Assembly: GCA_002070965.1 (NCBI GenBank)
Contig: MWEH01000151.1
Span: 2,252 to 66,251 of the forward strand
DNA from: Firmicutes bacterium ADurb.Bin080
GTDB lineage: Bacteria; Bacillota; Clostridia; Christensenellales; DTU072
Direction of reading: 5' to 3'
Length of the DNA: 64,000 nt
Made by a program: the position numbers and the translations under genes. This document shows, piece by piece, positions 4,569 to 64,000 of this stretch. The notes below the pieces were generated by a model, which had not been told where the DNA came from, made no database searches, and saw only the letters and a list, made by a program, of their open reading frames with translations. Within the stretch, counting starts at the first letter, position 1. Every line of letters begins with the position of its first letter.

Positions 4569-5948
4569 CTATCTGTTTTGCGGAATATCCGGTATACTGC
4601 TAAAACCTTTTTGAAGATCTTCGTCCGATAATTCAGTATCTTCCATTTTTCCCGCATTATACATTCTGTAAGCACTCATATCAAAATAACCCGTTCCAGT
4701 TAATCCAAAAATAATGGTCTTCTTTTCCCCACTCTCCTTGCACTTCAAAGCTTCATCAATAGCAATCTTAATAGCATGAGAGCTTTCTGGTGCGGGCAAA
4801 ATTCCTTCGCATTTTGAAAACATCGAAGCCGCATCAAAAACTGATTTCTGCCCGACTGCAACCGCCTCCAAATACCCATCATGATACAGCTTGCTGAGAA
4901 TTGGACTCATCCCGTGATATCTAAGCCCACCCGCATGAATAGGTGAAGGAATAAAACCATTTCCCAAAGTATACATTTTTAATAAAGGAGTAATTTTCCC
5001 GGTATCCCCAAAATCGTAAGCATATTTTCCTCTTGTAAATGAAGGACAGGATTTTGGCTCAACTGCAATAAACTTAATATTGTTTTTCCCCCTGATTTTA
5101 TCTCCCATATAAGGTCCAATAAGCCCACCTAAATTACTGCCACCCCCAGCACAACCTATTATAATGTCTGGTTTAATATCATATTTTTCACAAGCTGTCT
5201 TAAGCTCGATACCAATGATCGATTGATGAAGAAGTACGTAATCCAAGACGCTTCCAAGCACGTATTTACATGACTCTCGACTTGCACAGACCTCGATAGC
5301 TTCCGAAATGGCACACCCTAAAGACCCTGTCGTCCCTGGTTTTTCCTGTTGAATTCTCTTCCCTATTTCTGTTTTATTCGAAGGAGAAGGAGTAACACTT
5401 GCCCCATAGGTCTTCATTACTTCCAATCTATCAGGCTTTTGGTCCGCGCTTCCCTTGACCATGAAAATATCAACATCCAGGCCATAGAATGAGCAAGCCA
5501 TTGCAAGCGCAGTTCCCCATTGCCCGGCACCTGTTTCCGTCGTAATGGAATTGAGCCCCTGCTCTTTTGCATAATATGCCTGTGCTATTGCCGAATTAAG
5601 TTTATGAGAACCTGATGTATTTGTCCCTTCAAATTTATAATAAATCTCTGCGGGGGTTCCCAAAATTTTCTCTAGGAAATAAGCTCTGATCAAGGGAGAT
5701 GGTCTAATCATCCTATAGAAATTACAAACACTTTCTGGAATATCAATATACCTATCAGTAAAATTTAGTTCTTGTTTTGATAGTTCTTCGATAAAAATCC
5801 CACAAAGCTCCTCCAGTTTAATGGGGGCAAGGGTCCCGGGATGAAGGAAAGGATCGTGTTGCTCTTTCATGTCCGCACGCAGATTATACCACTGCCGCGG
5901 AAGCTCCTCTTCAGACAAATAGATTTTTGTTGGAATGTTCTTTGCCAT
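4569..5948 (-). CDS. TrpB-like PLP-dependent enzyme (TrpB2-class tryptophan synthase beta chain)
   Basis: 459-aa ORF. The long N-terminal extension ...LSEEELPRQWYNLRADM..., then GSHKLN (PLP lysine motif) and GCAGGGSNLGG (phosphate loop), are typical of the stand-alone TrpB2 group. RBS AGGAGG lies upstream. Confidence 0.85.
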   Translation of the reverse strand: MAKNIPTKIYLSEEELPRQWYNLRADMKEQHDPFLHPGTLAPIKLEELCGIFIEELSKQELNFTDRYIDIPESVCNFYRMIRPSPLIRAYFLEKILGTPAEIYYKFEGTNTSGSHKLNSAIAQAYYAKEQGLNSITTETGAGQWGTALAMACSFYGLDVDIFMVKGSADQKPDRLEVMKTYGASVTPSPSNKTEIGKRIQQEKPGTTGSLGCAISEAIEVCASRESCKYVLGSVLDYVLLHQSIIGIELKTACEKYDIKPDIIIGCAGGGSNLGGLIGPYMGDKIRGKNNIKFIAVEPKSCPSFTRGKYAYDFGDTGKITPLLKMYTLGNGFIPSPIHAGGLRYHGMSPILSKLYHDGYLEAVAVGQKSVFDAASMFSKCEGILPAPESSHAIKIAIDEALKCKESGEKKTIIFGLTGTGYFDMSAYRMYNAGKMEDTELSDEDLQKGFSSIPDIPQNR

Positions 5949-6017: not shown

Positions 6018-6235
6018 AAAAAAACCACGGTAAATTTCGCTTGGGACGAACTTCGCCGTGGTGCCACCCAATTTCACAGCTTTCGCTGTCTTGTAGGATA
6101 CTATCATATCCCTTCTCTGTTACGGGAGAACCCGTCAATCACTACTATCAGTTCGCAACTGCCCTCAACAGCCCATTCATATACCCTCTGTGCCCTTGTC
6201 TCACCAACCCAAGTCTCTCTCATCACCGATAAAGC
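6018..6235 (-). promoter_or_regulatory. T-box leader (tRNA-sensing riboswitch), probably Trp-specific, controlling the TrpB2-like gene
   Basis: The minus strand reads ...GUGAUGAGAGAGAC... (GA/K-turn-like start) ... GAA-UGG-G ... AAUUGGGUGGCACCACGG (T-box motif, plus coords 6056-6073). This overlaps the terminator CCACGG-N26-CCGUGG followed by U7 (6018-6061). Confidence 0.8.
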
Positions 6236-6389
6236 ATATTACTATTCTGTATCAACGGTTTATTTAATGAGCAAATCTTATCATTAGAAAATAGTTATGT
6301 CAACATTTTTTTAAACAACTTTAACGATTCAAAATCAAATTTCAATCCTTATCTTTGAAAAAACTCTCAACAATTAACTCAAATATATT

Positions 6390-52731: not shown

Positions 52732-53409
52732 CTAGTTCTTTGGAACATTCCCATCATCAAACATTGAAATAAGGTGAGACGCATCACAAAATGGTATATT
52801 CCTTGATTTTCCGCACCTACATAACGCAACAGAGTCCCGAGTTTCGTATATTTGCCCATCTTCAGACTCAATTGGAATCCCGCCTCTTACAAATATTGCA
52901 GCGCTCACTCCTTTTTCTGGATCCTGGACTATCTCAATGCACGGCTTATTTTTAATTTCATGTCTATACCCATTTTTTTCTATAGCAATCAATCTTCCAG
53001 CTGGACATTCAATAGCCCCAATAATAGCTTCGCTTTTATTTAACGGGTTATATGATCTTTCCGTCAGCTCCCATGCATCCCCTCTGTCGCGATGACAAAA
53101 TCTTGCCATGGCACATCTTCCATCATCCATTAAGTCTAAATCTGGGCCTTTTAGTATTTCAGCCCTCTCGTCATATGTTTTTCTACTTGCTGTTTCGCTA
53201 CCATCAAACCCATTCTTCAAATGTATTCCATCACAAAAGGGAGGTATGCTCGTTTCCCCGCATCGACAAAGTATATATTTTTCTTTTTGCGGAAGAGCTC
53301 TGCCATCTTGTAGTACATAATGGTCCCCGACTGGAACTATTATTTTTTCGTATAGCGGCACGCCACCCGTAACAATATAAGGCCCATTCTTTAAAATCTT
53401 TATCTTCAT
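52732..53409 (-). CDS. CDGSH iron-sulfur domain protein (two CDGSH-type motifs flanking a central Cys-containing domain)
   Basis: 225-aa ORF with CRCGETSIPPFCDGIH and CRCGKSRNIPFCDASH (C-x-C-x2-S-x3-P-x-C-D-x-x-H pattern), plus central Cys residues (CAMARFCH...CP). Confidence 0.7.
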   Translation of the reverse strand: MKIKILKNGPYIVTGGVPLYEKIIVPVGDHYVLQDGRALPQKEKYILCRCGETSIPPFCDGIHLKNGFDGSETASRKTYDERAEILKGPDLDLMDDGRCAMARFCHRDRGDAWELTERSYNPLNKSEAIIGAIECPAGRLIAIEKNGYRHEIKNKPCIEIVQDPEKGVSAAIFVRGGIPIESEDGQIYETRDSVALCRCGKSRNIPFCDASHLISMFDDGNVPKN

Positions 53410-53564
53410 ATAATATCCTGCAAAAAATCTAATAGTATTATACTATATATTTGTGTATTTTCAAAAAATACTAAAAACCACAATTGGCTTTAGTATTAGT
53501 GTTTTATCAAAAAAATACTTGTATGTAAACCGTTCATACTTAAATCGATTTATTCAAATCTATT

Positions 53565-54287
53565 TTAATCAACGTGCAAACCAACGCCAGAAAAAGCCAC
53601 ATAAAAAAGATAAAGAGCGAAGGCAAGAAGCAATATACCCATTACAATGTTGATAATTTTCCCTGCTTTCTCGAACTTGGGATTCCGAGAAAGGCCTTTT
53701 ACCCAACCAACTGAAGTTCCAGCGGCAACTGCAAGAATGCTGTGCCCAATCGCATAAGTTAGTAACATTATTGCACCCATCGCAATTGATTGACCAGTTG
53801 ATACCACGGCAACTATAGCGATAAGAACGGGAGTTGAACAGGGTGAAGCAAAAACCGAACTAACCATGCCAACGAGAAGGGCCCCTATTGCCCCTTTTTT
53901 CTTTCCTACGGGAGAAGGACCACATTTATGCTTGAAGATATGTATTATTCCAAAGGACTGAAGGGACATTACTACCATCAATAAGCCCAAAAAAATGTAC
54001 CAATACATCTGAATTCCCAAGAATAAATGTCCGACAAAGGCAGCTATTATTCCCATTATCGTAAATACAATTATGCTTCCTACTGCATACATTAAACTAT
54101 AGAAAAAAGCCTTCTTCCGGTCTTCTGAATATCCTCCGACATAACCTATAATCAAAGGCAAACTCGAAAGACAACAGGGAGTAAAAGAAGCTATTATTCC
54201 CGCAGCAAAGGAAATCAAAGGGCCCAGCCATATGTACTGAGTTAGTAAATTGCTTAATTGAGCAAGCCAAGTATCTATCATATCCAC
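53565..54287 (-). CDS. ccdA: Cytochrome c biogenesis protein CcdA / DsbD-type transmembrane thiol-disulfide electron transporter
   Basis: 240-aa, 6-TM ORF with the two conserved Cys-containing motifs (FTPCCLS and ASPCSTP). Confidence 0.8.
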   Translation of the reverse strand: MDMIDTWLAQLSNLLTQYIWLGPLISFAAGIIASFTPCCLSSLPLIIGYVGGYSEDRKKAFFYSLMYAVGSIIVFTIMGIIAAFVGHLFLGIQMYWYIFLGLLMVVMSLQSFGIIHIFKHKCGPSPVGKKKGAIGALLVGMVSSVFASPCSTPVLIAIVAVVSTGQSIAMGAIMLLTYAIGHSILAVAAGTSVGWVKGLSRNPKFEKAGKIINIVMGILLLAFALYLFYVAFSGVGLHVD

Positions 54288-54757
54288 CCCAACTTTTCAA
54301 AATCAGATTCGATTTGAGACTGATTTCTATATCCAACAGTCCTGTATACTTCCACCCCATCTTTTAAGAAGACCAAGGTCGGAATACTTTGAACATTATA
54401 TTCACTCGCTAGGCTAGCTCCTTTAGAAGAGAAACTAACATCATAAGAAAGAATATCTATCTCCCCAGAATATTTGCTTTTTAATGCATCAACCACCGGT
54501 TTCAATTGTCTACACGGTTCACATGTAACAGTACTGCCTAAGTTTAATACAACATACTGAGTCTCTGTTTCACCATCTATCAATTCTTGATTATTTATTC
54601 CCTCAGAGTCTTTGTTAAAAACCACCGAAAAAACAATAACCCCCACGATTGCAAGCAAAACCACAGATATTATTAGCGACTTAACTATCAAATCCTTTCT
54701 GCGAATCTTAGTATTTCGTTCAGCCTGCGCTTTTTTTTGAAGATCTCTGTTTGCCAT
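54278..54757 (-). CDS. Membrane-anchored thioredoxin-family protein (CxxC = CEPC)
   Basis: 159-aa ORF with an N-terminal TM anchor and a thioredoxin fold with a CEPC motif. It overlaps the ccdA start by 10 nt. Confidence 0.75.
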   Translation of the reverse strand: MANRDLQKKAQAERNTKIRRKDLIVKSLIISVVLLAIVGVIVFSVVFNKDSEGINNQELIDGETETQYVVLNLGSTVTCEPCRQLKPVVDALKSKYSGEIDILSYDVSFSSKGASLASEYNVQSIPTLVFLKDGVEVYRTVGYRNQSQIESDFEKLGWI

Positions 54758-54882: not shown

Positions 54883-55311
54883 TTATTTGTTATAGAAATA
54901 TTCCAAAGCTTCTGAATATCCTTGAAAACCTTTGCCCAATATTATCTTCTCTGCATACAAGGAAATGAAAGAAAAATGTCTGAACTCCTCACGCTTAGAA
55001 ATATCAGTTAAATGAACCTCAACTGTGGGAATATTAACCGCTTTTAATGCATCAAGTATTGCCAAGCTTGTATGAGTAAAAGCTCCTGCGTTTATTATAA
55101 TACCATCATATCTTCCCAAAGCGTTTTGAATCAAAGTCACTATCTCTCCCTCATAGTTGCTTTGAAATGCCTCAGCTTTGATCCCCCTAATTTGAGCTTG
55201 TTCATAAATATGATTTACTAGATCATCATAGGTCTTATTTCCGTAAATATCTCTTTCTCGTATCCCTAACATATTTATATTGGGACCATTAATAACTAAT
55301 ATCGTTTTCAT
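54883..55311 (-). CDS. aroQ: 3-dehydroquinate dehydratase, type II
   Basis: 142-aa ORF with ILVINGPN.N.LG.RE..IYG, a later NAGA.THTS motif. Confidence 0.92.
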   Translation of the reverse strand: MKTILVINGPNINMLGIRERDIYGNKTYDDLVNHIYEQAQIRGIKAEAFQSNYEGEIVTLIQNALGRYDGIIINAGAFTHTSLAILDALKAVNIPTVEVHLTDISKREEFRHFSFISLYAEKIILGKGFQGYSEALEYFYNK

Positions 55312-56527
55312 AAATCTCCTTTATTTCTTTTGCGACTTCAAGATTAATTGAGTTATTTAAAACTGAAACATTGGATATATCTGCATATAGGTGCATTCTA
55401 TCTGACTCAATCTTTTTCAAAGCGTTAATGTCCCTCGACAAGGGTCTTCCTTCCATTTCCAAGTCCGAAATATCCCTTCTTATCCATACTACATATCCAT
55501 TTCTTCTAATAGAATCCCTGTTGTCTTCTTTTAATACGGCTCCGCCTCCAGTAGCAATTACATACCCCAAATTACTACAGGCTTCATTCAATAATTGGCT
55601 CTCTATTTCCCTAAAATAGGTTTCTCCCTTAAGTTCGAAAAGATCAGGAATTTTCCTCCCCTCTTTTTTCTCTATCTGCTCGTCTATATCTATGAATGGT
55701 CGATTCATTAATCTTGCCAGTTCTTTACCAATAGTAGTCTTTCCAGACCCAGGCATTCCAACAAGGACCAGATTAGTATGAGCAATAAGTGTTTTTCTGA
55801 AAAGCTCTTCTGTCAGTGTATCTGGCAATATTTTTCCAAGATACAACTCCGCCGCCTTTTTTGCTTGAGCTACAAGCATATAAAGCCCGTTTGCTGATGG
55901 TATTTTAATTTTTTCTGCTTCTTCTTTAAGCTTGGTTTTCAATGGGTTGTATACAGCATCATACACCCCGGAGAGTCTTGGAAAACGTTTTAAATCAATC
56001 GGAATTTCGTTTGTTATCGGGAACATTCCAACTGGCGTCGTGTTTATGATAATATCTGTACAGTTGTATTCATAGCAATTGTTATAATTGATTTCACCCT
56101 CGCGAGAAACCTTAACAATGCTTGCAGCTGCTTCGCTTCGCGAAAAGTATTCCGCAGTGGCAGCGGTGCCCCCGGTTCCCAATATTAAAACATTCTTTCC
56201 CCATATAGAAATACCCGCTTTCTTAAACGCTTGTCTCATCCCTTCTACATCGGTGTTGTATCCATAACTCTTGCCATCTTTTTTTACAACAGTATTGACT
56301 GCTCCAACCTTTTTTGCAATATCATCCACATAGTCCAGATGACTAATAATCGATTTTTTGTAAGGGATAGTAACGTTGTATCCATCATAAGTGTTATTTA
56401 CCACAAAATTTTTTAACTCTGTTTCATCAACTAATTCACTTACCCCGTAATCAAAACCCATGTTCTTATATAAGAATGGGGAAAGTGTATGTGGTAGCTT
56501 TTTCCCTATTACACAATACTTAGCCAA
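55289..56527 (-). CDS. Bifunctional shikimate dehydrogenase / shikimate kinase fusion
   Basis: 412-aa ORF. The N-terminal 250 aa or so are AroE-like (SPF.., NVT.P.K, NTD, GTGG). The C-terminal 160 aa or so are AroK-like (LVGMPGSGKTTIG Walker A, GGG motif). Confidence 0.88.
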   Translation of the reverse strand: MAKYCVIGKKLPHTLSPFLYKNMGFDYGVSELVDETELKNFVVNNTYDGYNVTIPYKKSIISHLDYVDDIAKKVGAVNTVVKKDGKSYGYNTDVEGMRQAFKKAGISIWGKNVLILGTGGTAATAEYFSRSEAAASIVKVSREGEINYNNCYEYNCTDIIINTTPVGMFPITNEIPIDLKRFPRLSGVYDAVYNPLKTKLKEEAEKIKIPSANGLYMLVAQAKKAAELYLGKILPDTLTEELFRKTLIAHTNLVLVGMPGSGKTTIGKELARLMNRPFIDIDEQIEKKEGRKIPDLFELKGETYFREIESQLLNEACSNLGYVIATGGGAVLKEDNRDSIRRNGYVVWIRRDISDLEMEGRPLSRDINALKKIESDRMHLYADISNVSVLNNSINLEVAKEIKEIYENDISY

Positions 56528-56591
56528 TTTATCACCTCAATATTTTTCATTATAAAATAAAGCAAAAACTTTCGGAAGATGTTAATTTAAA

Positions 56592-57734
56592 CTAGTCGAC
56601 TTCTCTGTAACATCCCAAAAATACAAATTGTTCTGTATTTAGATCAAGTTCAGCAAGTAAGTTTTGAACAACCATATTTTCTATTTCAGCATCAAAATCA
56701 AAATAAAAGCCAAATTCAAAAACACTATCTGGTATAGGCCTACTTTCAAGTTTTGTCAGATTAAGCCCAAGAGTTGCAAATTTGTTAAGCATTTTATTTA
56801 GACTTCCCGCTCGATGGGGAAGATGTACAAATATACTTATCTTTTCGGATTTTTCATATATTTGTAACTCGGGAGCAATAACTATAAACCTCGTATAATT
56901 ATTATCCTTATCCTGAATATACTGTTTGACCACTGACAAACCATAAAGCTCAGCACACTCTTTTGAGGAAATACACGCAATATCCCTTCTCTCCGAATCA
57001 CGTACGATTTTTGCCGCTACTGCAGTATTACTAACCACAGTTACCTTTACATCTTTTAATGATTTTAAGAATATTGCGCTTTGAGCAATTGCTTGTTCAT
57101 GAGAAAAAATTTCTTTTATATCCTTTATCTCCACTCCTCTTTTTGCAAGAAGGTTATGCTTAACATGAAGTTTTATACTTCTGACAATATAAAACCTGTG
57201 CTTTCTCATCAAATCATAGACTTCATTGATGCTTCCTACTGAACTATTTTCTATAGGAAGAATCCCGAACTGACAAAATTTCTTTTCAATGGCCCCGAAA
57301 ACTCCCTCAAAATCCTTAAAATACATAATGTTATTAATTGGGAAAACTTTGTCTGCGGCCATATTTGAATAAGATCCTTCAGCCCCTTGACAAGCGACAT
57401 TTGCATTTACAGGAAACTTCAATATTCCTTTTGTGATTTTTTCTTTAATTTCCGTAAGTAAATCTGATTTTAGCTCAAGATATCCACTCTGATAGGCCTT
57501 GCTTGTCTCGAATAATGTTTCAAAAAACTGCTTTGCGTAAAGTTTTATTTCGTCTTCAAGACTCTCTGTAACACGATTAATAATCTCCTTTTCTCTTTGT
57601 GGATTTTCCAAAGGAGACCCCGTTTTTTTCTTGAAAAGTGCGACTTCCTTAGCGAGAATCATCCTTTTTTCATACAAGGAAACCATATTATCATCAATTT
57701 CATCTATTTTTTTTCGTATTTCATCCAATTCCAT
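56592..57734 (-). CDS. pheA: Bifunctional chorismate mutase / prephenate dehydratase (P-protein) with a C-terminal ACT domain
   Basis: 380-aa ORF. It has an N-terminal AroQ-class CM helix (LDEIRKKIDEIDDNMVSLYEKR), a PDT domain (…GILPIENSS.G…) and an ACT-like end with an ESRP motif. Confidence 0.88.
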   Translation of the reverse strand: MELDEIRKKIDEIDDNMVSLYEKRMILAKEVALFKKKTGSPLENPQREKEIINRVTESLEDEIKLYAKQFFETLFETSKAYQSGYLELKSDLLTEIKEKITKGILKFPVNANVACQGAEGSYSNMAADKVFPINNIMYFKDFEGVFGAIEKKFCQFGILPIENSSVGSINEVYDLMRKHRFYIVRSIKLHVKHNLLAKRGVEIKDIKEIFSHEQAIAQSAIFLKSLKDVKVTVVSNTAVAAKIVRDSERRDIACISSKECAELYGLSVVKQYIQDKDNNYTRFIVIAPELQIYEKSEKISIFVHLPHRAGSLNKMLNKFATLGLNLTKLESRPIPDSVFEFGFYFDFDAEIENMVVQNLLAELDLNTEQFVFLGCYREVD

Positions 57735-57794
57735 TTTTCTCTCCCTTTTTACTTATATATTGTTAGTTCCCATAAAGAAATATACCTAAGAATT

Positions 57795-58874
57795 TCATTT
57801 TTTATCCAAAATAGCATCCATTATCGCAAGTGCAACAGCCGACTCTATGCAAGGAACCGCTCTTGGTACAATACAAGCATCATGTCTGCCTTTAATACTT
57901 ATTTGTACTTCTTCTCCAGTTTTCAAATTAACCGTATTCTGAATCTTCCCAATTGAGGGTGTTGGACGTATCGCGACTCTTAGAGTAATAGGCATCCCAT
58001 TGGAAATTCCGCCATTTATTCCCCCGCTGTTATTTGTCTTTGTTTCAACTTTCCCACCTCTCATTATAAAGGGATCATTCGCTTCACTCCCTCTCATCTC
58101 CGTAATATCAAACCCTCGGCCAAATTCAATTGCCTTAACTGCAGGAACACCAAATACTGAAGAGGAAATCCTGCTCTCCATCCCTAATTGCATTGTATCC
58201 CCAATACCAGCGGTCAAACCAAAGACTATGCATTCTATTATTCCGCCGACGCTGTCCATTTCCTTTTTAGCTTTTTCAACTTCAGCCCTCATTTTTTCTC
58301 TTGAATCATCCTCGAAAGCCGGGATTGGGAAATTTTGTATGGATCTTATCTCATTTAGGGATATTTCCCTCTCCTGGTAACTTAATCCCTTAATTTTTCC
58401 AATTGACGTTACATAAGCCAAAACTTCGATCCCTTTTTTTGATAAATATTCTTTAGCTATATATCCAGCGATGCAAAATGGGGCAGTCATTCTTCCCGAA
58501 AACCTTCCTCCACCAGTTGAAAACCCCTTCTTCCCCGATTGAATATATGAAACATAATCAGCGTGAGAGGGTCTTGGGGTAAACGAAAGTTCATCGTAGG
58601 GAGTAGCTTTTATATCTGTATTTTTTATAATTGCCTTCAATGACTCTCCATTGGTCTCATTGTTGGTCAGCCCTTCCAAAAAAATGGGAATATCAGCCTC
58701 TTTTCTCTCAGTACTGTGAGCACCTTTACCTGCTTTTCTCCTGTCTAAAAATAAATTTAATTTTTCAATATCAACTTGAATTCCTTCGGGTGCACCTTGA
58801 AATACCAAACCTATTTCAGCAGAGTGTGATTCTCCGAAAATATCGATTTCTATATTTCTGTAATTTGATTTCAC
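57795..58874 (-). CDS. aroC: Chorismate synthase
   Basis: 359-aa ORF with GESHS, RPSHAD, GGGR.S.R and RHD.C motifs. Confidence 0.92.
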   Translation of the reverse strand: MKSNYRNIEIDIFGESHSAEIGLVFQGAPEGIQVDIEKLNLFLDRRKAGKGAHSTERKEADIPIFLEGLTNNETNGESLKAIIKNTDIKATPYDELSFTPRPSHADYVSYIQSGKKGFSTGGGRFSGRMTAPFCIAGYIAKEYLSKKGIEVLAYVTSIGKIKGLSYQEREISLNEIRSIQNFPIPAFEDDSREKMRAEVEKAKKEMDSVGGIIECIVFGLTAGIGDTMQLGMESRISSSVFGVPAVKAIEFGRGFDITEMRGSEANDPFIMRGGKVETKTNNSGGINGGISNGMPITLRVAIRPTPSIGKIQNTVNLKTGEEVQISIKGRHDACIVPRAVPCIESAVALAIMDAILDKK

Positions 58875-58954
58875 TTTTCTCTCCCATGTGGTGTTTAATA
58901 TATTAATTACTCTAAAACTATTTTCTATTTTCCTAAACTAACCCTTCTTGAGTA

Positions 58955-59066
58955 CTTATTCTCTGTATCGGATGGTATTAATAATCTCGTAGATATTTCG
59001 TTTTTTAGCACTTATTCTCTGTATCGGATGCTATTAATTATCTCGTATATATTTAATTTATTATTA
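58955..59066. repeat. Tandem direct repeat, 56-nt unit x 2, abutting the aroA stop codon
   Basis: Units at 58955-59010 and 59011-59066 share the first 44 nt or so (cttattctctgtatcggatgNtattaatNatctcgtaNatattt) with 3 mismatches. The second unit ends on the aroA stop (59064-59066). Confidence 0.8.
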
Positions 59067-60350
59067 AAATTCTTCAACAGTTCCCCCCAGCATTTCGAAG
59101 TCGCGGAAAAAATCAGGATATGATTTGTTAATTGCCTGAGCCCCCCATATCGATACTGTCTCTTGTGTTCCGACTACCGCTATGGCCTCGCTCATAACCA
59201 TCCGATGGTCATTAAACCCTGGAAGTTCTCCTCCTTTAATTTGTCCCCCGATGATATATAATTTATCATCCTCACTCTCAGCATCGACTCCAAACACCCT
59301 TAGTATCTCTAATATAGCAGATAATCTGTCACTTTCCTTTAAGCGAAGTCTTTCTGTCTCAGCGATAATGGATTTTCCCTCTGCTCTTGCAAGCAGTATG
59401 GACATTATGGGCACTATATCTGGGCAATTCTTTGCAGAAAATTCCAAGCTCTCTATTTTTCCTTGAGAAAATACTATGCCATTGTTCTCGACTAGTACAT
59501 TCCCACCAGCTTTTTTAAGTAGATCCATTACTATTCTATCCCCTTGTTTGGAAAGCGGGTTTAGTCCAAATATCTTAATTCTTCCTGAAAGAGCACCTGC
59601 AACAGCATAAAAACAAGCACCGCTCCAATCTGCTTCTAAAGAAATCTCACCTGGAGAAGTATATCTCTCATTCCCTTTTATTATGAATCCATCGGAGGTT
59701 TTTTGGGGGAAAATTCCAAATTGATTCAATACATCTAGAGTAATATCTAAATAACTTGCCGAAACTGCATTACCTTGTACCGTTATTCTACTTTCTTTTC
59801 CAAGAATTGGTAAGGATAATAACAATCCAGTGATATACTGCGAGCTAATTTCCCCATTTATTTCATAGTCTCCGGGAACCAATTTTCCACAAACGGAAAA
59901 GGGTATCTCCTCACGGTCGAAATTTGCTCCGTGTCTTTTCAATGAGTCTACGAGCTCGGAGATAGGTCTTTTACTTAATCGTTCACTCCCTTTGAAGCGA
60001 GCAGACACTCCAAGAGCCGCAGCAAGTGGAAGCATAAAACGTAAGGTTGAGCCACTTTCTGAAACATTTAGTACAGGTCTATCGATTCTTATACTATTCA
60101 ATGGATAAATAACAGTTTTGTTCTCTGATTTACGATCGAATACGACACCCAGAGAGGACAAGCAATCTATGGTCGCCTTAATATCTTCTCCAATTAGCCT
60201 TCCATTCACAGTGGTTGGACGGTCAGATAGAGCACATGCAATTAAAACCCTATGTGCATAAGACTTAGAAATAGGTACTGTTATCTCCCCATTCAATCCT
60301 TTTTTTGCACTTAATCTTAAGTTTATATCTTTTATCTCATTCATAATCAA
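59064..60350 (-). CDS. aroA: 3-phosphoshikimate 1-carboxyvinyltransferase (EPSP synthase)
   Basis: 428-aa ORF with SKSYAHR, ESGSTLRF and DHRM motifs. Confidence 0.92.
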   Translation of the reverse strand: MIMNEIKDINLRLSAKKGLNGEITVPISKSYAHRVLIACALSDRPTTVNGRLIGEDIKATIDCLSSLGVVFDRKSENKTVIYPLNSIRIDRPVLNVSESGSTLRFMLPLAAALGVSARFKGSERLSKRPISELVDSLKRHGANFDREEIPFSVCGKLVPGDYEINGEISSQYITGLLLSLPILGKESRITVQGNAVSASYLDITLDVLNQFGIFPQKTSDGFIIKGNERYTSPGEISLEADWSGACFYAVAGALSGRIKIFGLNPLSKQGDRIVMDLLKKAGGNVLVENNGIVFSQGKIESLEFSAKNCPDIVPIMSILLARAEGKSIIAETERLRLKESDRLSAILEILRVFGVDAESEDDKLYIIGGQIKGGELPGFNDHRMVMSEAIAVVGTQETVSIWGAQAINKSYPDFFRDFEMLGGTVEEF

Positions 60351-60434
60351 ACCATCATAACCTTTTTCCCTGAAAGTAAAACCTCTCTTTCTATATCGAA
60401 AATATGTCTTCCTTTCAGAATTACAACTTTTTTA

Positions 60435-61502
60435 CTAGTTTATTTTTCTGTTTGGGTCGTGTCCAAAAAACCGACATAACTCATCCTGGCTCAGATTAAC
60501 TAGTTCGCAATTACCTATTCCTTTTACGGTTACAATATTTATTTTATTTCCTGGTTCAGCTTTTTTATCATTTCGAGCGGCTGAAAGCAAATCTCCACAC
60601 TTATATGGTACAGTAACATCAAATTTATATTTTTTTATTAGATTTATTATTCTTTCTCTTTCATGTTTAGCAAGTGCGACAGCACCTGGAGCCGTAATTA
60701 ACATATATAGACCTTTTACTACGGCTAGTCCGTGAGGAACTGTGTATTTTGAAAGCTTTTCAATCGCATGCCCCATAGTGTGGCCTAAGTTTAAAATCAT
60801 CCTGTTTCCTCTTTCTCTTTCATCATTCTCTACAACACTTGCTTTGTACTTTATACATAGTTCCAAGAATCTATCTTCATTACTTTCATCTAAGCCTTTT
60901 TCTAAAATTTCTAAAATTTCACCTCCCGCCAATACTGCATATTTTATCCCTTCTCCTATTCCGTTAATTTTTTCTTCGTTGGGTAAATCCCGGAATGTGT
61001 CAGTATCGCACAATACCAATTTGGGTTGATAAAAAGTCCCTACATAGTTTTTCCCTTCGGGGAGATCAATTCCATTTTTCCCTCCGATTGCAGCATCGAT
61101 TGCAGAAAGAAGCGTTGTAGGGATTTGTATGAAATCTATCCCTCTCATATATGTACTTGCAACAAAACCAGTTATATCTCCGACAACACCCCCACCAAGT
61201 GCTATTAATGCGTCTTTCCTTGTATACTCCCTGGCGGCCATGTCTCTTACTATTTGGACATATGTTCCAATGTTTTTACTTTTTTCTCCAACCTTAATGG
61301 GATAAATGCAGGCATCTAAACCCGCTTTTTCTAGAGAAGAGAGTAGTTTAGTCCCGTATAGTTTTGCGACTTTTTCATCGCTAATAACCATGATTTTTCT
61401 TGCTGGTGAAATCAAATTAACATAGTTTCCTGCTTCGCATATAAGTCCCTTTGAAATCAGAACTTTATACCCTTTTACAGTATTCACTTTTATCTCTATC
61501 AT
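60435..61502 (-). CDS. aroB: 3-dehydroquinate synthase
   Basis: 355-aa ORF with GGGVVGD.TGF.A, LNLGHT.GHA and HG.AV motifs. Confidence 0.92.
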   Translation of the reverse strand: MIEIKVNTVKGYKVLISKGLICEAGNYVNLISPARKIMVISDEKVAKLYGTKLLSSLEKAGLDACIYPIKVGEKSKNIGTYVQIVRDMAAREYTRKDALIALGGGVVGDITGFVASTYMRGIDFIQIPTTLLSAIDAAIGGKNGIDLPEGKNYVGTFYQPKLVLCDTDTFRDLPNEEKINGIGEGIKYAVLAGGEILEILEKGLDESNEDRFLELCIKYKASVVENDERERGNRMILNLGHTMGHAIEKLSKYTVPHGLAVVKGLYMLITAPGAVALAKHERERIINLIKKYKFDVTVPYKCGDLLSAARNDKKAEPGNKINIVTVKGIGNCELVNLSQDELCRFFGHDPNRKIN

Positions 61503-61547
61503 ATTTTCCTCCTTGTCATTTGAAATATATATCTCAATTTACATTAT

Positions 61548-61716
61548 TCTTTTTCCACTAATAACCCATTCATTTAACTGATCTTTACCTTAGGTAATTA
61601 GTTTTTCCCAATTTTATTAACTGGTTCGTTTTTACTCACTAATCTTTTTTTTACTTTAGATACTTAGTTATTCCCCAATGTGATTAAACTGGTTCGTATT
61701 TACTCACTAATCTTTT
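61548..61716. repeat. Tandem direct repeat, 66-nt unit x about 2.5, duplicating the 3' end and stop codon of tyrA
   Basis: Units start at about 61584 and about 61650 (tttacYttagRtaMttagtt.ttcccaat.t.attaaactggttcgtWtttactcactaatctttt), with a partial copy at 61548-61583. The second unit carries the real stop (61700-61702) and the last 5 codons or so. Confidence 0.8.
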
Positions 61717-62557
61717 CCTTGGCAAGTTTATCCGCATACTCCTTCCGTTTCACCCCTTCAGACAATAATCTTTCGAGTTCCTGGAAATTCTCCCCTGAAA
61801 TAGCTTCTTTATACTCCGACAAGTGTTCTATTAATTGAGAAATCTCCTCAAGAAGATAATCCTTATTAGACATAAACAGCTGTGTCCACATATTGGGGTT
61901 TAATTTCGCTACCCTTGTTAAATCTTTAAAGCTTCCTGCTGAAAAGCCATGGTGTTCCTTTGACATTGGACTTTTCACATAGGAGCTTGACACTATGTGA
62001 GCAAGCTGAGAGGTATATGCTATTACCTTATCGTGATAATCTGCAGATGCAGTGACTACACCTTCACATCCTATTTCTTTAAAAAGGTTCTTTACTTTCA
62101 CTAAAGCCTCAATTCCAGTGTGAACGGGAGTTATTATGAAATAAGCTTTTTCAAAAAGAGATGTAGTTGAGTGCGCTATCCCGGAAAATTCCCTTCCAGC
62201 CATAGGATGAACTCCCAAAAACTCAACTTCAGGATAAATTTTCTTGAGCTCCTCCATTTTTGAAACAATTGTTCTCTTAACCCCGCAAGTATCAGTAATA
62301 ACCGCACCTCGCTTAAGCTTCGCGGGAAGTTCTTCAAGCAAATTCAGTGTCTGGTATGGGTTGACTGCAATTATTACTAAGTCCGCCCTAGAAATATTAT
62401 TATCATCTATCTCTTCATGGTATGCTCCCAGCATTTTAGCCTTTAGCATTGACGAAGGATCAATGTCACAAGCTATAACATAATGTTTGGTGTTTTTTAC
62501 AATGGTTCTACCAATTGATCCACCAATTAGACCCATTCCATATATTGCAATTATCAT
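61700..62557 (-). CDS. tyrA: Prephenate dehydrogenase
   Basis: 285-aa ORF with IAIYGMGLIGGS (Rossmann), HPMAG and a helical C-terminal dimerisation domain. Confidence 0.88.
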   Translation of the reverse strand: MIIAIYGMGLIGGSIGRTIVKNTKHYVIACDIDPSSMLKAKMLGAYHEEIDDNNISRADLVIIAVNPYQTLNLLEELPAKLKRGAVITDTCGVKRTIVSKMEELKKIYPEVEFLGVHPMAGREFSGIAHSTTSLFEKAYFIITPVHTGIEALVKVKNLFKEIGCEGVVTASADYHDKVIAYTSQLAHIVSSSYVKSPMSKEHHGFSAGSFKDLTRVAKLNPNMWTQLFMSNKDYLLEEISQLIEHLSEYKEAISGENFQELERLLSEGVKRKEYADKLAKEKISE

Positions 62558-62620
62558 ATTCTACCCCTAAATACTTTTTCTCATTTTATATAATCAGACT
62601 AAAGCGCGAATTATGTTCCG

Positions 62621-63634
62621 TTAACTTCTGATTTTATTAACCAAAGGAAGCATTACATCCATTTTTCTCTGAAGCGCCAGAAATTGCTCAGGAGTTATGG
62701 CTTGTGGGCCGTCGCACAGAGCACACGCAGGATTGTTGTGAACCTCGATCATTAATCCGTCTGCCCCAGCTCCTATAGAGGCAAGGGACATAGGTTCAAC
62801 CAGTCTTGAAAGACCTGATGCATGAGACGGATCTACAATGACTGGAAGATGTGTCTTCTCTTTCACTAAAGGTATTGCTGATAAGTCAAGAGTGTTTCTT
62901 GTATATGTTTCGAAGGTCCTTATTCCTCTTTCGCATAGTATCACTTCCATATTTCCACCACTCATAATATATTCAGCACTCATAAGCCATTCTTCTATAG
63001 TATTTGCAAGGCCCCTTTTTAAGAGAATTGGTTTTTTAAGTTTTCCAAGTTCCTTAAGAAGTTCAAAATTTTGCATATTTCTTGCTCCAACCTGGATAAC
63101 ATCCACATCCAAAAAGGCATCGATATACTTCTCGCTCATTATTTCTGTAACAATGGGCATTCCTGTTTCTTCTCTCGCCTTTTTTAGTATTTCTAAACCA
63201 TCTAGTTTCATGCCTTGGAAGGAATAAGGCGAAGTCCTTGGTTTGAATGCTCCCCCTCTTAATAGCCCCGCTCCAGCTTCCTTGACAGCTTCAGCGATTG
63301 AAATAACCTGTTCCTCGGACTCAACTGCACAAGGTCCAGCTATTACTTGGAAGTATTTCCCACCGAATTTTCGCCCTGAAACATCTATAATTGTGTCATC
63401 CGGATGGAATTTCCTATTTGCATTCTTATATGGTTCTTGTATTCTAGTTACTGATTCGACGATATCCAAAGACCTAACCAAGTCAATATCAACCTTTGAC
63501 GTATCTCCAATTAGTCCAATTACTGCAGTCTTTTCTCCTTGACTAAAATGTATCCCAAGTCCTAAACTCTTTATCCAGTTTGTCAGGTTTTCTATTTGTT
63601 TTTTTTCTTGATTATCTTTTATTACTATTATCAT
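62621..63634 (-). CDS. aroF: 3-deoxy-7-phosphoheptulonate (DAHP) synthase, type I-beta, with an N-terminal ferredoxin-like regulatory domain
   Basis: 337-aa ORF. An N-terminal FL/ACT-like domain of about 65 aa is followed by AGPC.VES, KPRTSPY.FQG and a DPSH motif. Confidence 0.9.
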   Translation of the reverse strand: MIIVIKDNQEKKQIENLTNWIKSLGLGIHFSQGEKTAVIGLIGDTSKVDIDLVRSLDIVESVTRIQEPYKNANRKFHPDDTIIDVSGRKFGGKYFQVIAGPCAVESEEQVISIAEAVKEAGAGLLRGGAFKPRTSPYSFQGMKLDGLEILKKAREETGMPIVTEIMSEKYIDAFLDVDVIQVGARNMQNFELLKELGKLKKPILLKRGLANTIEEWLMSAEYIMSGGNMEVILCERGIRTFETYTRNTLDLSAIPLVKEKTHLPVIVDPSHASGLSRLVEPMSLASIGAGADGLMIEVHNNPACALCDGPQAITPEQFLALQRKMDVMLPLVNKIRS

Positions 63635-63653
63635 AATTTCCTCCCTAAGTTAT

Positions 63654-63677
63654 AAAAAAACCACCTATTTGGTGGCC
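63654..63677 (-). terminator. Attenuator terminator in the aro operon leader
   Basis: On the minus strand, GG-CCACC-aaata-GGTGG-UUUUUUU: 5 G/C-rich pairs plus 2 possible G-U pairs, followed by U7. It ends 20 nt before the aroF RBS. Confidence 0.6.
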
Positions 63678-63720
63678 TTATCCATTAATCTTTAATTTAA
63701 TTAATTAAACTTGACCACAA

Positions 63721-63789
63721 CTAAAAAGGGCTTCTAAAATAGTAGCCGTAAAAATAATTGAAGGTCATTTTGCTTTTTTGCAAGTTCAT
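63721..63789 (-). CDS. Candidate leader peptide MNLQKSKMTFNYFYGYYFRSPF (22 aa, 4 Phe + 4 Tyr)
   Basis: Hand translation. ATG at 63789 lies 6 nt after AGGAGA, and TAG is at 63721-63723. Seven of nine consecutive residues (FNYFYGYYF) are aromatic. It is located between a promoter and a terminator upstream of the aro/pheA/tyrA operon. Confidence 0.6.
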   Translation of the reverse strand: MNLQKSKMTFNYFYGYYFRSPF

Positions 63790-63811
63790 TTTCTCTCCTG
63801 AATGTATTATT

Positions 63812-63841
63812 AGTATATTCTTAGCCTAGTTCTTTTGTCAA
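63812..63841 (-). promoter_or_regulatory. Promoter TTGACA-18-TATACT of the aro operon leader
   Basis: On the minus strand, TTGACA (63836-63841), 18-nt spacer, TATACT (63812-63817). Confidence 0.5.
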
Positions 63842-64000
63842 TACTTATTTTTTTAGGTAGTTCTGGCGTTTATCACTATGAAGCTTTGAAACTTCAAAAA
63901 TAACATATCTGCAATTATCTCAATGAAAAAATTATCTCACCAATATACTATTTTTCTCCCCCTTGGAACCCATCTATCCTCTTTCCTATTTTCTCTGAAA

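Follow-up and report, generated by a model that had tools for sequence, protein, structure and literature searches.

In the genome of Firmicutes bacterium ADurb.Bin080, the aromatic amino acid operon that begins with aroF (encoding 3-deoxy-D-arabino-heptulosonate 7-phosphate (DAHP) synthase) is preceded by a leader which very probably attenuates transcription in the ribosome-mediated (leader-peptide) manner of trpL and pheL, sensing the charging of both Phe-tRNA and Tyr-tRNA. The leader occupies positions 63654 to 63841 of the stretch analyzed here, 64,000 nt of contig MWEH01000151.1, which in its entirety is referred to as the window; all window features described below lie on the minus strand, and coordinates are those of the window. 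The assignment is based on the anatomy of the leader, on the mutually exclusive folds available to its RNA, and on conservation and covariation across related aroF loci.

The components from which an attenuator had originally been predicted, namely a promoter, a Shine-Dalgarno (SD) sequence, a short open reading frame (ORF) rich in Phe and Tyr codons, the hexamer GUGGUC behind its stop codon, and a terminator, were all found where they had been placed. The leader ORF (63721..63789) comprises 22 codons plus UAG and encodes MNLQKSKMTFNYFYGYYFRSPF; translation bears out that the peptide contains four Phe, four Tyr and no Trp residues, and that seven of nine consecutive positions (codons 10–18, F N Y F Y G Y Y F; 63736..63762) are aromatic. 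An AGGAG motif (63795..63799) is situated 5 nt 5′ of the ATG, and further upstream the hexamers TTGACA (−35; 63836..63841) and TATACT (−10; 63812..63817) are separated by 18 nt; with 11 of 12 consensus matches, this is the best promoter-like site that a promoter scan found in the region. Several of the related loci described below (L016, L019, L021, L025, L028) have a TATACT box at a similar distance 5′ of the leader ATG, and an SD-like site is found at the equivalent position in most relatives.

Downstream, the stop codon UAG (63721-63723) is followed by UU and then, 2 nt 3′ of the stop, by GUGGUC (63713-63718), which is contained within a longer segment overlapping the stop codon, termed region 2 (UAGUUGUGGUCA; 63712..63723). 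A spacer (63680..63710) connects it to region 3, GGCCACC (63671..63677), which is at the same time the 5′ arm of the terminator and the 3′ strand of the antiterminator. Across a loop of AAAUA, region 3 faces GGUGG (region 4, 63661-63665), which together with the adjoining U7 tract (63654-63660) makes up the 3′ arm and tail of the terminator (63654..63665). The antiterminator/terminator pair of the original prediction thus stands, but its inventory missed a third element: region 1, UGACC..CAAUUA (63755..63767; codons 8–12), the 5′ strand of an anti-antiterminator located just 5′ of the Phe/Tyr run, pairs with UAGUUG/GGUCA (63723-63712) of region 2 and therefore completes the classical 1:2, 2:3, 3:4 design.

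For folding, the window leader was taken from approximately +1 to the U-tract, and a ribosome was simulated as a footprint of 27 nt which is kept unpaired. In the ribosome-free minimum free energy (MFE) structure, regions 1 and 2 are paired (UGACC:GGUCA and CAAUUA:UAGUUG), and the terminator helix, AAGGCCACC:GGUGGUUUU, is present as well. When one of codons 12–15 occupies the A site, the MFE structure lacks the terminator and contains GUGGUC:GGCCAC, extended by the spacer helices GUUUA:UGGAU and UUAAUU:GAUUAA; once the stop codon is in the A site, the terminator is back. The probability of the terminator is 0.98 in ribosome-free RNA, drops to 0.07 for the stalls that act most strongly, and stands at 0.97 for a ribosome on the stop codon. 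Region 2 has either region 1 or region 3 as its partner, never both at once, and the folds likewise bear out the proposed mutual exclusion of GUGGUC:GGCCAC and CCACC:GGUGG. It is thus a geometry of region 1 at codons 8–12 and region 2 overlapping the stop codon in which simulated footprints switch the fold, and they do so in the direction originally proposed, that is, a stalled ribosome yields the antiterminator and a ribosome at the stop the terminator. Taken by itself, the antiterminator segment (63720-63671) has a folding energy of −12.8 kcal/mol, which gives it a slight edge in stability over the terminator segment (−10.8 kcal/mol); the 1:2 duplex of the window amounts to −11.3 kcal/mol.

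The course of events would then be as follows. Transcription would start a few nt after TATACT, and a ribosome would load at AGGAG and translate the 22 codons as the polymerase proceeds. If Phe-tRNA and Tyr-tRNA are ample, the ribosome would reach the UAG with its footprint over region 2; with region 2 masked, GGCCACC would be free to pair with GGUGG, the 3:4 hairpin would form, and transcription would stop at the U7 tract. If either charged tRNA is scarce, the ribosome would stall within the F-N-Y-F-Y-G-Y-Y-F run and cover region 1, so that region 2 could capture region 3 as it emerges; no terminator would form and the polymerase would read into the aroF operon. In RNA that is not translated at all, 1:2 and 3:4 would both form. 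With Phe and Tyr codons mixed within one run, lack of either amino acid should open the switch; such OR logic suits an operon which makes both Phe and Tyr by virtue of pheA and tyrA.

An ATG-started ORF with at least seven aromatic residues in nine positions was not encountered in any of 2000 dinucleotide shuffles of the 206-nt window leader, and the leader ORF is the sole ORF of such aromatic density on either strand of the 64-kb window. For comparison, 80 aroF loci were collected by means of AroF (62–78 % identity) from species-representative genomes; they derive from uncultured Clostridia, from metagenome-assembled genomes (MAGs) labelled Christensenellaceae, Oscillospiraceae, Acutalibacteraceae and Lachnospiraceae, from one cultured species, Angelakisella massiliensis, and from a few Treponema/Spirochaetales MAGs. 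A leader was scored where an ATG-started ORF of 15–45 codons with at least six Phe/Tyr in nine positions lies no more than 350 nt upstream of aroF. The conserved aromatic-rich ORF that had been anticipated upstream of aroF orthologs is indeed there: 57 of 81 genome loci carry it, as compared to 0.9 % of the shuffles and none of the 81 reverse complements, and three further loci have a leader approximately 400 nt upstream of aroF. In the genome loci without a proximal leader, aroF mostly lies directly behind another ORF on the same strand, in several cases inside a longer operon, and no T-box was found in them. A second, independent set of 80 loci fetched from metagenomes (none with more than 74 % AroF identity) served as replication and yielded the leader ORF in 49 of 73 loci, with none among the 73 reverse complements. 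The leader is thus carried by about two thirds of the roughly 150 aroF loci sampled.

What is conserved in these leaders is above all the kind of codon. The best 9-codon windows of 56 leaders (504 residues) contain 199 Tyr, 189 Phe and a single Trp, Phe and Tyr together accounting for 77 %. The window peptide resembles those of L025 (MFNKAYFYFGYYFRRPYC), L021, L017, L009, L086 (MKSFNYFYYAYFFRRPY) and L084, and these peptides look homologous; among the relatives at large, peptide length (15–45 aa) and the sequence outside the Phe/Tyr run are poorly conserved. The three closest pairs of loci differ by six synonymous and no non-synonymous codon changes, a small sample, and a fourth, diverged pair shows the opposite (no synonymous, nine non-synonymous), the comparison being underpowered with four independent close pairs.

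The RNA pairings recur along with the ORF. A hairpin followed by a run of U residues precedes aroF in 57 of 57 leaders. The 2:3 duplex has a mean energy of −9.3 kcal/mol, compared with −6.9 kcal/mol when the intervening sequence is shuffled and −7.4 kcal/mol when arms are swapped between loci (Wilcoxon P of 2.5e-7 and 8e-5, respectively). For the 1:2 duplex (56 loci), the mean is −14.1 kcal/mol versus −9.1 kcal/mol for shuffled and −10.0 kcal/mol for swapped sequences (2.5e-9 and 2.2e-7). Region 1 is typically found 10–25 nt 5′ of the first Phe/Tyr codon, its partner being region 2 with its flanks; in the window clade, region 2 starts 3–11 nt after the first base of the stop codon and therefore lies inside the footprint of a terminating ribosome. 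The four-region design of classical attenuators is thus shared across the family. When full-length leaders are folded at equilibrium with a ribosome footprint in place, the window and about 15 relatives switch cleanly; where the terminator is very stable, such folding is uninformative.

A covariance model (R1) derives from the leaders of nine relatives; it excludes the window and has the terminator helix as its sole structure. Over the 64 kb its top match, with 40.1 bits (E 8e-6), is the window leader (63649-63787), whereas the second-best reaches 15.9 bits; among 81 sources it made 19 matches. In the alignment derived from R1, which is fitted to the terminator and into which the antiterminator did not enter, the 11 proposed 2:3 pairs are paired in 75.6 % of cases, as opposed to 33–50 % when the partner is slid by 1–3 columns, and the covariation score is 0.206 versus 0.05–0.13. 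The pair 86:161, for example, is U-A in seven, G-C in four and A-U in one of the sequences; where relatives show U-A and C-G, the window has G-C and U-A, and the 3′ arm of the terminator shifts in step. Regions 2, 3 and 4 thus seem to change together, and the alignment lends moderate, not overwhelming, support to such a three-way covariation. An alignment of 24 leaders made with MAFFT, and the RNAalifold analysis upon it, were dropped as regions 2 and 3 were out of register.

Several observations weigh against reading the leader as an attenuator. The hairpin of the window is weak, consisting of five core pairs with G-U and A-U extensions (ΔG −8.7 to −10.8 kcal/mol), and a consensus terminator scan made no call at it, which probably reflects the stem-extension rule of that scan; the assessment of the hairpin relies on its folding energies. 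When the ribosome is placed on codons 16–18, the simple footprint model re-forms the 1:2 helix behind and around it, an arrangement that is probably sterically impossible. The closest relative found has 78 % AroF identity, and with none above that value the 1:2 helix of the window is without direct comparative support. The column-wise covariation is modest, in that 20–22 of 500 shuffles reach the observed values. Many relatives hold the terminator at equilibrium at every simulated ribosome position, so the switch there must be a kinetic one. In RNA truncated before the 3′ arm is made, the 5′ arm of the terminator is sequestered across loci to 0.74 with a stalled ribosome, 0.63 without a ribosome and 0.49 when the ribosome sits on the stop; these values run in the predicted direction, though the low value at the stop is partly inherent in the masking model. 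Finally, that the ORF is translated, that transcripts end prematurely at the U-tract, and that this ending responds to tRNA charging is what we infer from the sequences.

The weakness of the window terminator, its absence from the consensus scan, and its persistence at equilibrium in all simulated states of many relatives are what one would expect if the leader were translated but the hairpin were merely a constitutive partial terminator or stability element, with the control by Phe and Tyr exerted elsewhere, for example by feedback inhibition of DAHP synthase or by a DNA-binding repressor. This we consider improbable, as it leaves unexplained why about 110 loci are enriched in Phe and Tyr codons in one frame and on this strand only, and why conserved, covarying segments are complementary to the 5′ arm of the terminator and to each other. 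A further reading, that the ORF arose by chance in AT-rich DNA and has nothing to do with the hairpin beside it, might appeal to the fact that TTT, TTC, TAT and TAC are common triplets in DNA of 36 % GC; it is refuted by the comparative data to a degree that leaves it hardly any credence, given the shuffles (none of the 2000 at the density of the window; 0.9 % against 57 of 81 genome loci), the empty reverse complements in both sets of loci, and the match of the covariance model to the window leader.

Alternative hairpins by themselves do not name their sensor, and a T-box is used elsewhere in the same genome; the choice between terminator and antiterminator might therefore be set by a trans-acting factor, be it a tRNA bound in the manner of a T-box, a protein like TRAP or PyrR, or a small molecule acting through a riboswitch, with the ORF being incidental. 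Scans with Rfam 15, however, placed no family at threshold on the window leader or on 39 related loci, and the T-box model (RF00230) had no match in 63500-64000 even at E values up to 10. There are only five (G/U)AG triplets in the leader, irregularly spaced, and therefore no array of the TRAP type. Moreover, it is the Phe/Tyr codon content in a single frame which is conserved, whereas the peptides differ in length and both the nucleotide sequence and that of the hairpins change between relatives. Such a factor is therefore very improbable, and we assign just as little weight to the notion that the nascent peptide itself matters, either as an arrest peptide which senses free Phe or Tyr in the ribosomal tunnel like TnaC, or as a functional hydrophobic micro-protein. 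Short motifs are in fact shared between the peptides, (F)AAEYFYFYF in loci of the Oscillospiraceae type and a Pro two to three residues before the stop in the window clade. Yet the AAE motif coincides with region 1 of the RNA (GCAGCUGAA), which pairs with region 2, so that a constraint on the RNA explains it; peptide length and the sequence other than Phe and Tyr are poorly conserved, as stated above; and stalling induced by an excess of the amino acid would, contrary to what biosynthesis calls for, turn the operon on while its product is plentiful. A leader peptide read by a ribosome that responds to charged Phe-tRNA and Tyr-tRNA thus remains by far the best explanation.

Among the Rfam models, the one for the Phe leader (RF01859) came closest to the window leader, at 24.1 bits (E 0.09) against a gathering score of 55; as the score stems mainly from the terminator and the U-rich codons, membership was rejected. 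Other matches seen at permissive thresholds (Trp_leader, rseX and others) were likewise below threshold and driven by the terminator.

The Pro codons of the window clade (63724-63735 in the window; also L009, L014, L017, L021, L025, L028, L029, L086) are placed two to three codons before the stop, within RSPF, RRPYC, KPYF, FRPY, KPDC, KPY, EPIS or RRPY. Since the sequence CCAUAU of this region in relatives is able to pair with AUAUCGG of region 2, the constraint on these codons may lie on the RNA rather than on the peptide.

The only T-box of the window (6039-6264; 114 bits) is located upstream of a gene for a TrpB-like enzyme dependent on pyridoxal phosphate (4569-5948; NF009057, 661 bits), and its specifier loop reads GAA-UGG-G, which corresponds to Trp. 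With a Trp-specific T-box and the aroF leader peptide side by side, two sensing modes would therefore be employed in one and the same genome, Trp being sensed by a T-box and Phe and Tyr by a leader peptide, as far as the sequences tell.

The operon that would be regulated, aroF-tyrA-aroB-aroA-aroC-pheA-aroE/K-aroQ (54883..63634), was assigned by NCBIfam matches. Its first gene, aroF (62621-63634), has an SD sequence GGGAGG at 63640..63645 and its ATG at 63634. It is followed by tyrA, encoding prephenate dehydrogenase (61700-62557), aroB (60435-61502), aroA (59064-60350), aroC (57795-58874), pheA, encoding a chorismate mutase/prephenate dehydratase (56592-57734), a fusion of aroE and aroK for shikimate dehydrogenase and shikimate kinase (55289-56527), and aroQ for a type II dehydroquinase (54883-55311). 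The matches agree with the gene content on which the original prediction had relied, as pheA and tyrA are present and trp genes are absent from the operon. The aroE/aroK fusion is a single ORF of 412 aa with a TTG start, and its 3′ end overlaps the start of aroQ by 23 nt. Directly 3′ of aroQ and on the same strand (52732-54757), a thioredoxin-domain protein, a transmembrane protein of the DsbD type and a CDGSH iron-sulfur protein are encoded.

The related loci also display variations of the arrangement. In L022, L024 and L026, the stop codon of a comparable leader (MKKYNSYFYFYFNSKV and its variants) lies 380–430 nt upstream of aroF, and no large ORF is found in the gap. In L001 (2313-2330), L002, L003, L008 and L012, and also in L006, L015, L020 and L084, the 3′ end of a promoter TTGACA-17-TA(T/A/C)A(C/A)T is only some 6 nt away from the leader ATG; the leaders of these loci lack an SD sequence, unlike those of the window and most other loci, and their leader-peptide mRNA would, from the position of the promoter, be leaderless. 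The loci in which aroB directly follows aroF and no tyrA is adjacent (L044, L048, L053, L055, L060, L067) have leaders biased toward Phe; the fraction Y/(F+Y) is 0.17–0.31 there versus approximately 0.5 in the window clade, a difference which is confounded with phylogeny. In L063, from a MAG of Treponema sp. whose AroF is 68 % identical to that of the window, a Phe/Tyr-rich ORF (…GNFYYSAYYYYSYYATGKGSK; ca. 2340-2422) with a different start ends 79 nt upstream of aroF, which suggests that operon and leader have spread horizontally as a unit, or else mis-binning.

The mechanism itself would be of the textbook type; what the comparison adds is a family of aroF leaders which occurs widely among gut Clostridia and seems to have no entry in Rfam. 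Whether the window leader is one of a large uncatalogued family of attenuators with dual specificity (Phe or Tyr) which is the default controller of shikimate/aro operons throughout uncultured and cultured gut Clostridia is, in our estimation, evenly balanced. If so, the family would span MAGs labelled Christensenellaceae, Oscillospiraceae, Acutalibacteraceae and Lachnospiraceae, Angelakisella massiliensis, and at least one Treponema MAG; it would fill the place which T-boxes hold for the aromatic pathways of Bacilli; some of its members would be leaderless, with the AUG at or next to the 5′ end of the transcript and attenuation driven by leaderless initiation; and the premature termination at aroF of Clostridioides difficile, taken up below, would be explained. 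One unannotated element of 150 nt appears to set the expression of the whole aromatic pathway in many gut Clostridia. By means of interleaved codons, a single leader would integrate the supply of two amino acids, which a single T-box cannot, and the presence of a Trp T-box for trpB2 and a Phe/Tyr leader in the same genome would amount to a division of labour. Such a leader might also serve as a compact Phe/Tyr-responsive switch for the engineering of anaerobes, and recognition of the family would keep ORFs of this kind from being annotated as hypothetical proteins.

The attenuators of pheL-pheA and pheM-pheST in γ-proteobacteria follow a four-region design with a run of aromatic codons in a leader of 14–15 codons. 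The window leader shares the logic and the design with these systems, which are represented by RF01859, its best match in Rfam albeit below threshold. The pheL leader, however, contains only Phe codons and controls one gene; the window leader has Tyr codons interspersed among its Phe codons, and its control would extend to the entire common pathway and the two terminal branches.

The statement in the original prediction that an attenuator of this kind would be unusual in low-GC Gram-positives turned out to be too strong. His leader-peptide attenuators have been predicted in Firmicutes, namely in the Bacillus cereus group, in C. difficile and other Peptostreptococcaceae, and in Erysipelotrichales (PMC2965389, PMC9413887); as in the window, this is classical attenuation in organisms that also use T-boxes, but for another amino acid and other operons, and those cases are bioinformatic predictions only. 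Closer still is an upstream ORF (uORF) in front of aroF in Acholeplasma (PMC8632094), and a short F-Y-F leader of aroF is described for Corynebacterium glutamicum in PMC11802643 and PMC4046766.

The Acholeplasma element, the uORFC-13-1 motif (Brewer et al. 2021, RNA Biol, PMC8632094), comprises 24 sequences from low-GC Acholeplasma and unassigned environmental DNA, occurs exclusively upstream of aroF, and was proposed by its authors to be a ribosome-mediated attenuator. It is reported to have promoter boxes, a ribosome-binding site and a start codon, with Phe encoded by a U-rich stretch and an intrinsic terminator next to it (PMC8632094), and, as far as the published description permits a comparison, the window leader has all of these features. 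In the Rfam 15 scans no family of this kind gave a match. The description speaks of "at least one Phe" and mentions neither Tyr codons nor a 1:2/2:3 scheme; the window leader has both.

The leader of C. glutamicum, aroR, was predicted by Mentz et al. in 2013 (PMC4046766) and was studied by Neshat et al. in 2014, whose work is summarized in PMC11802643. According to the latter, a review, it is a short F-Y-F leader upstream of the DAHP synthase gene aroF, and stalling raises transcription under Phe limitation. Like the window leader, aroR is a short ORF with mixed Phe and Tyr codons in front of aroF; it differs in that it belongs to another phylum, the Actinobacteria, and has three regulatory codons versus seven in nine. 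In the same review the supply of Tyr is stated to be without effect on aroR, whereas a response to both Phe and Tyr is proposed for the window leader. Compared by description only, the two are likely of independent origin.

A literature search, which was not exhaustive, did not uncover a description of a Phe/Tyr leader of aroF in Clostridia; the nearest report is a termination event in C. difficile, where an atlas of its RNAs lists aroF among the genes with premature transcription termination to which no known element was assigned (PMC8237595). The termination in the 5′ untranslated region of aroF in C. difficile 630 may be an experimentally observed member of the Clostridia leader family. The T-box (RF00230), lastly, accomplishes the same task in the same genome, that is, it converts the state of tRNA charging into the formation of a terminator, but the mode of sensing is different: a T-box binds its tRNA directly, without translation and with one tRNA per element, whereas the leader of the aroF operon would depend on translation and would respond to two amino acids.

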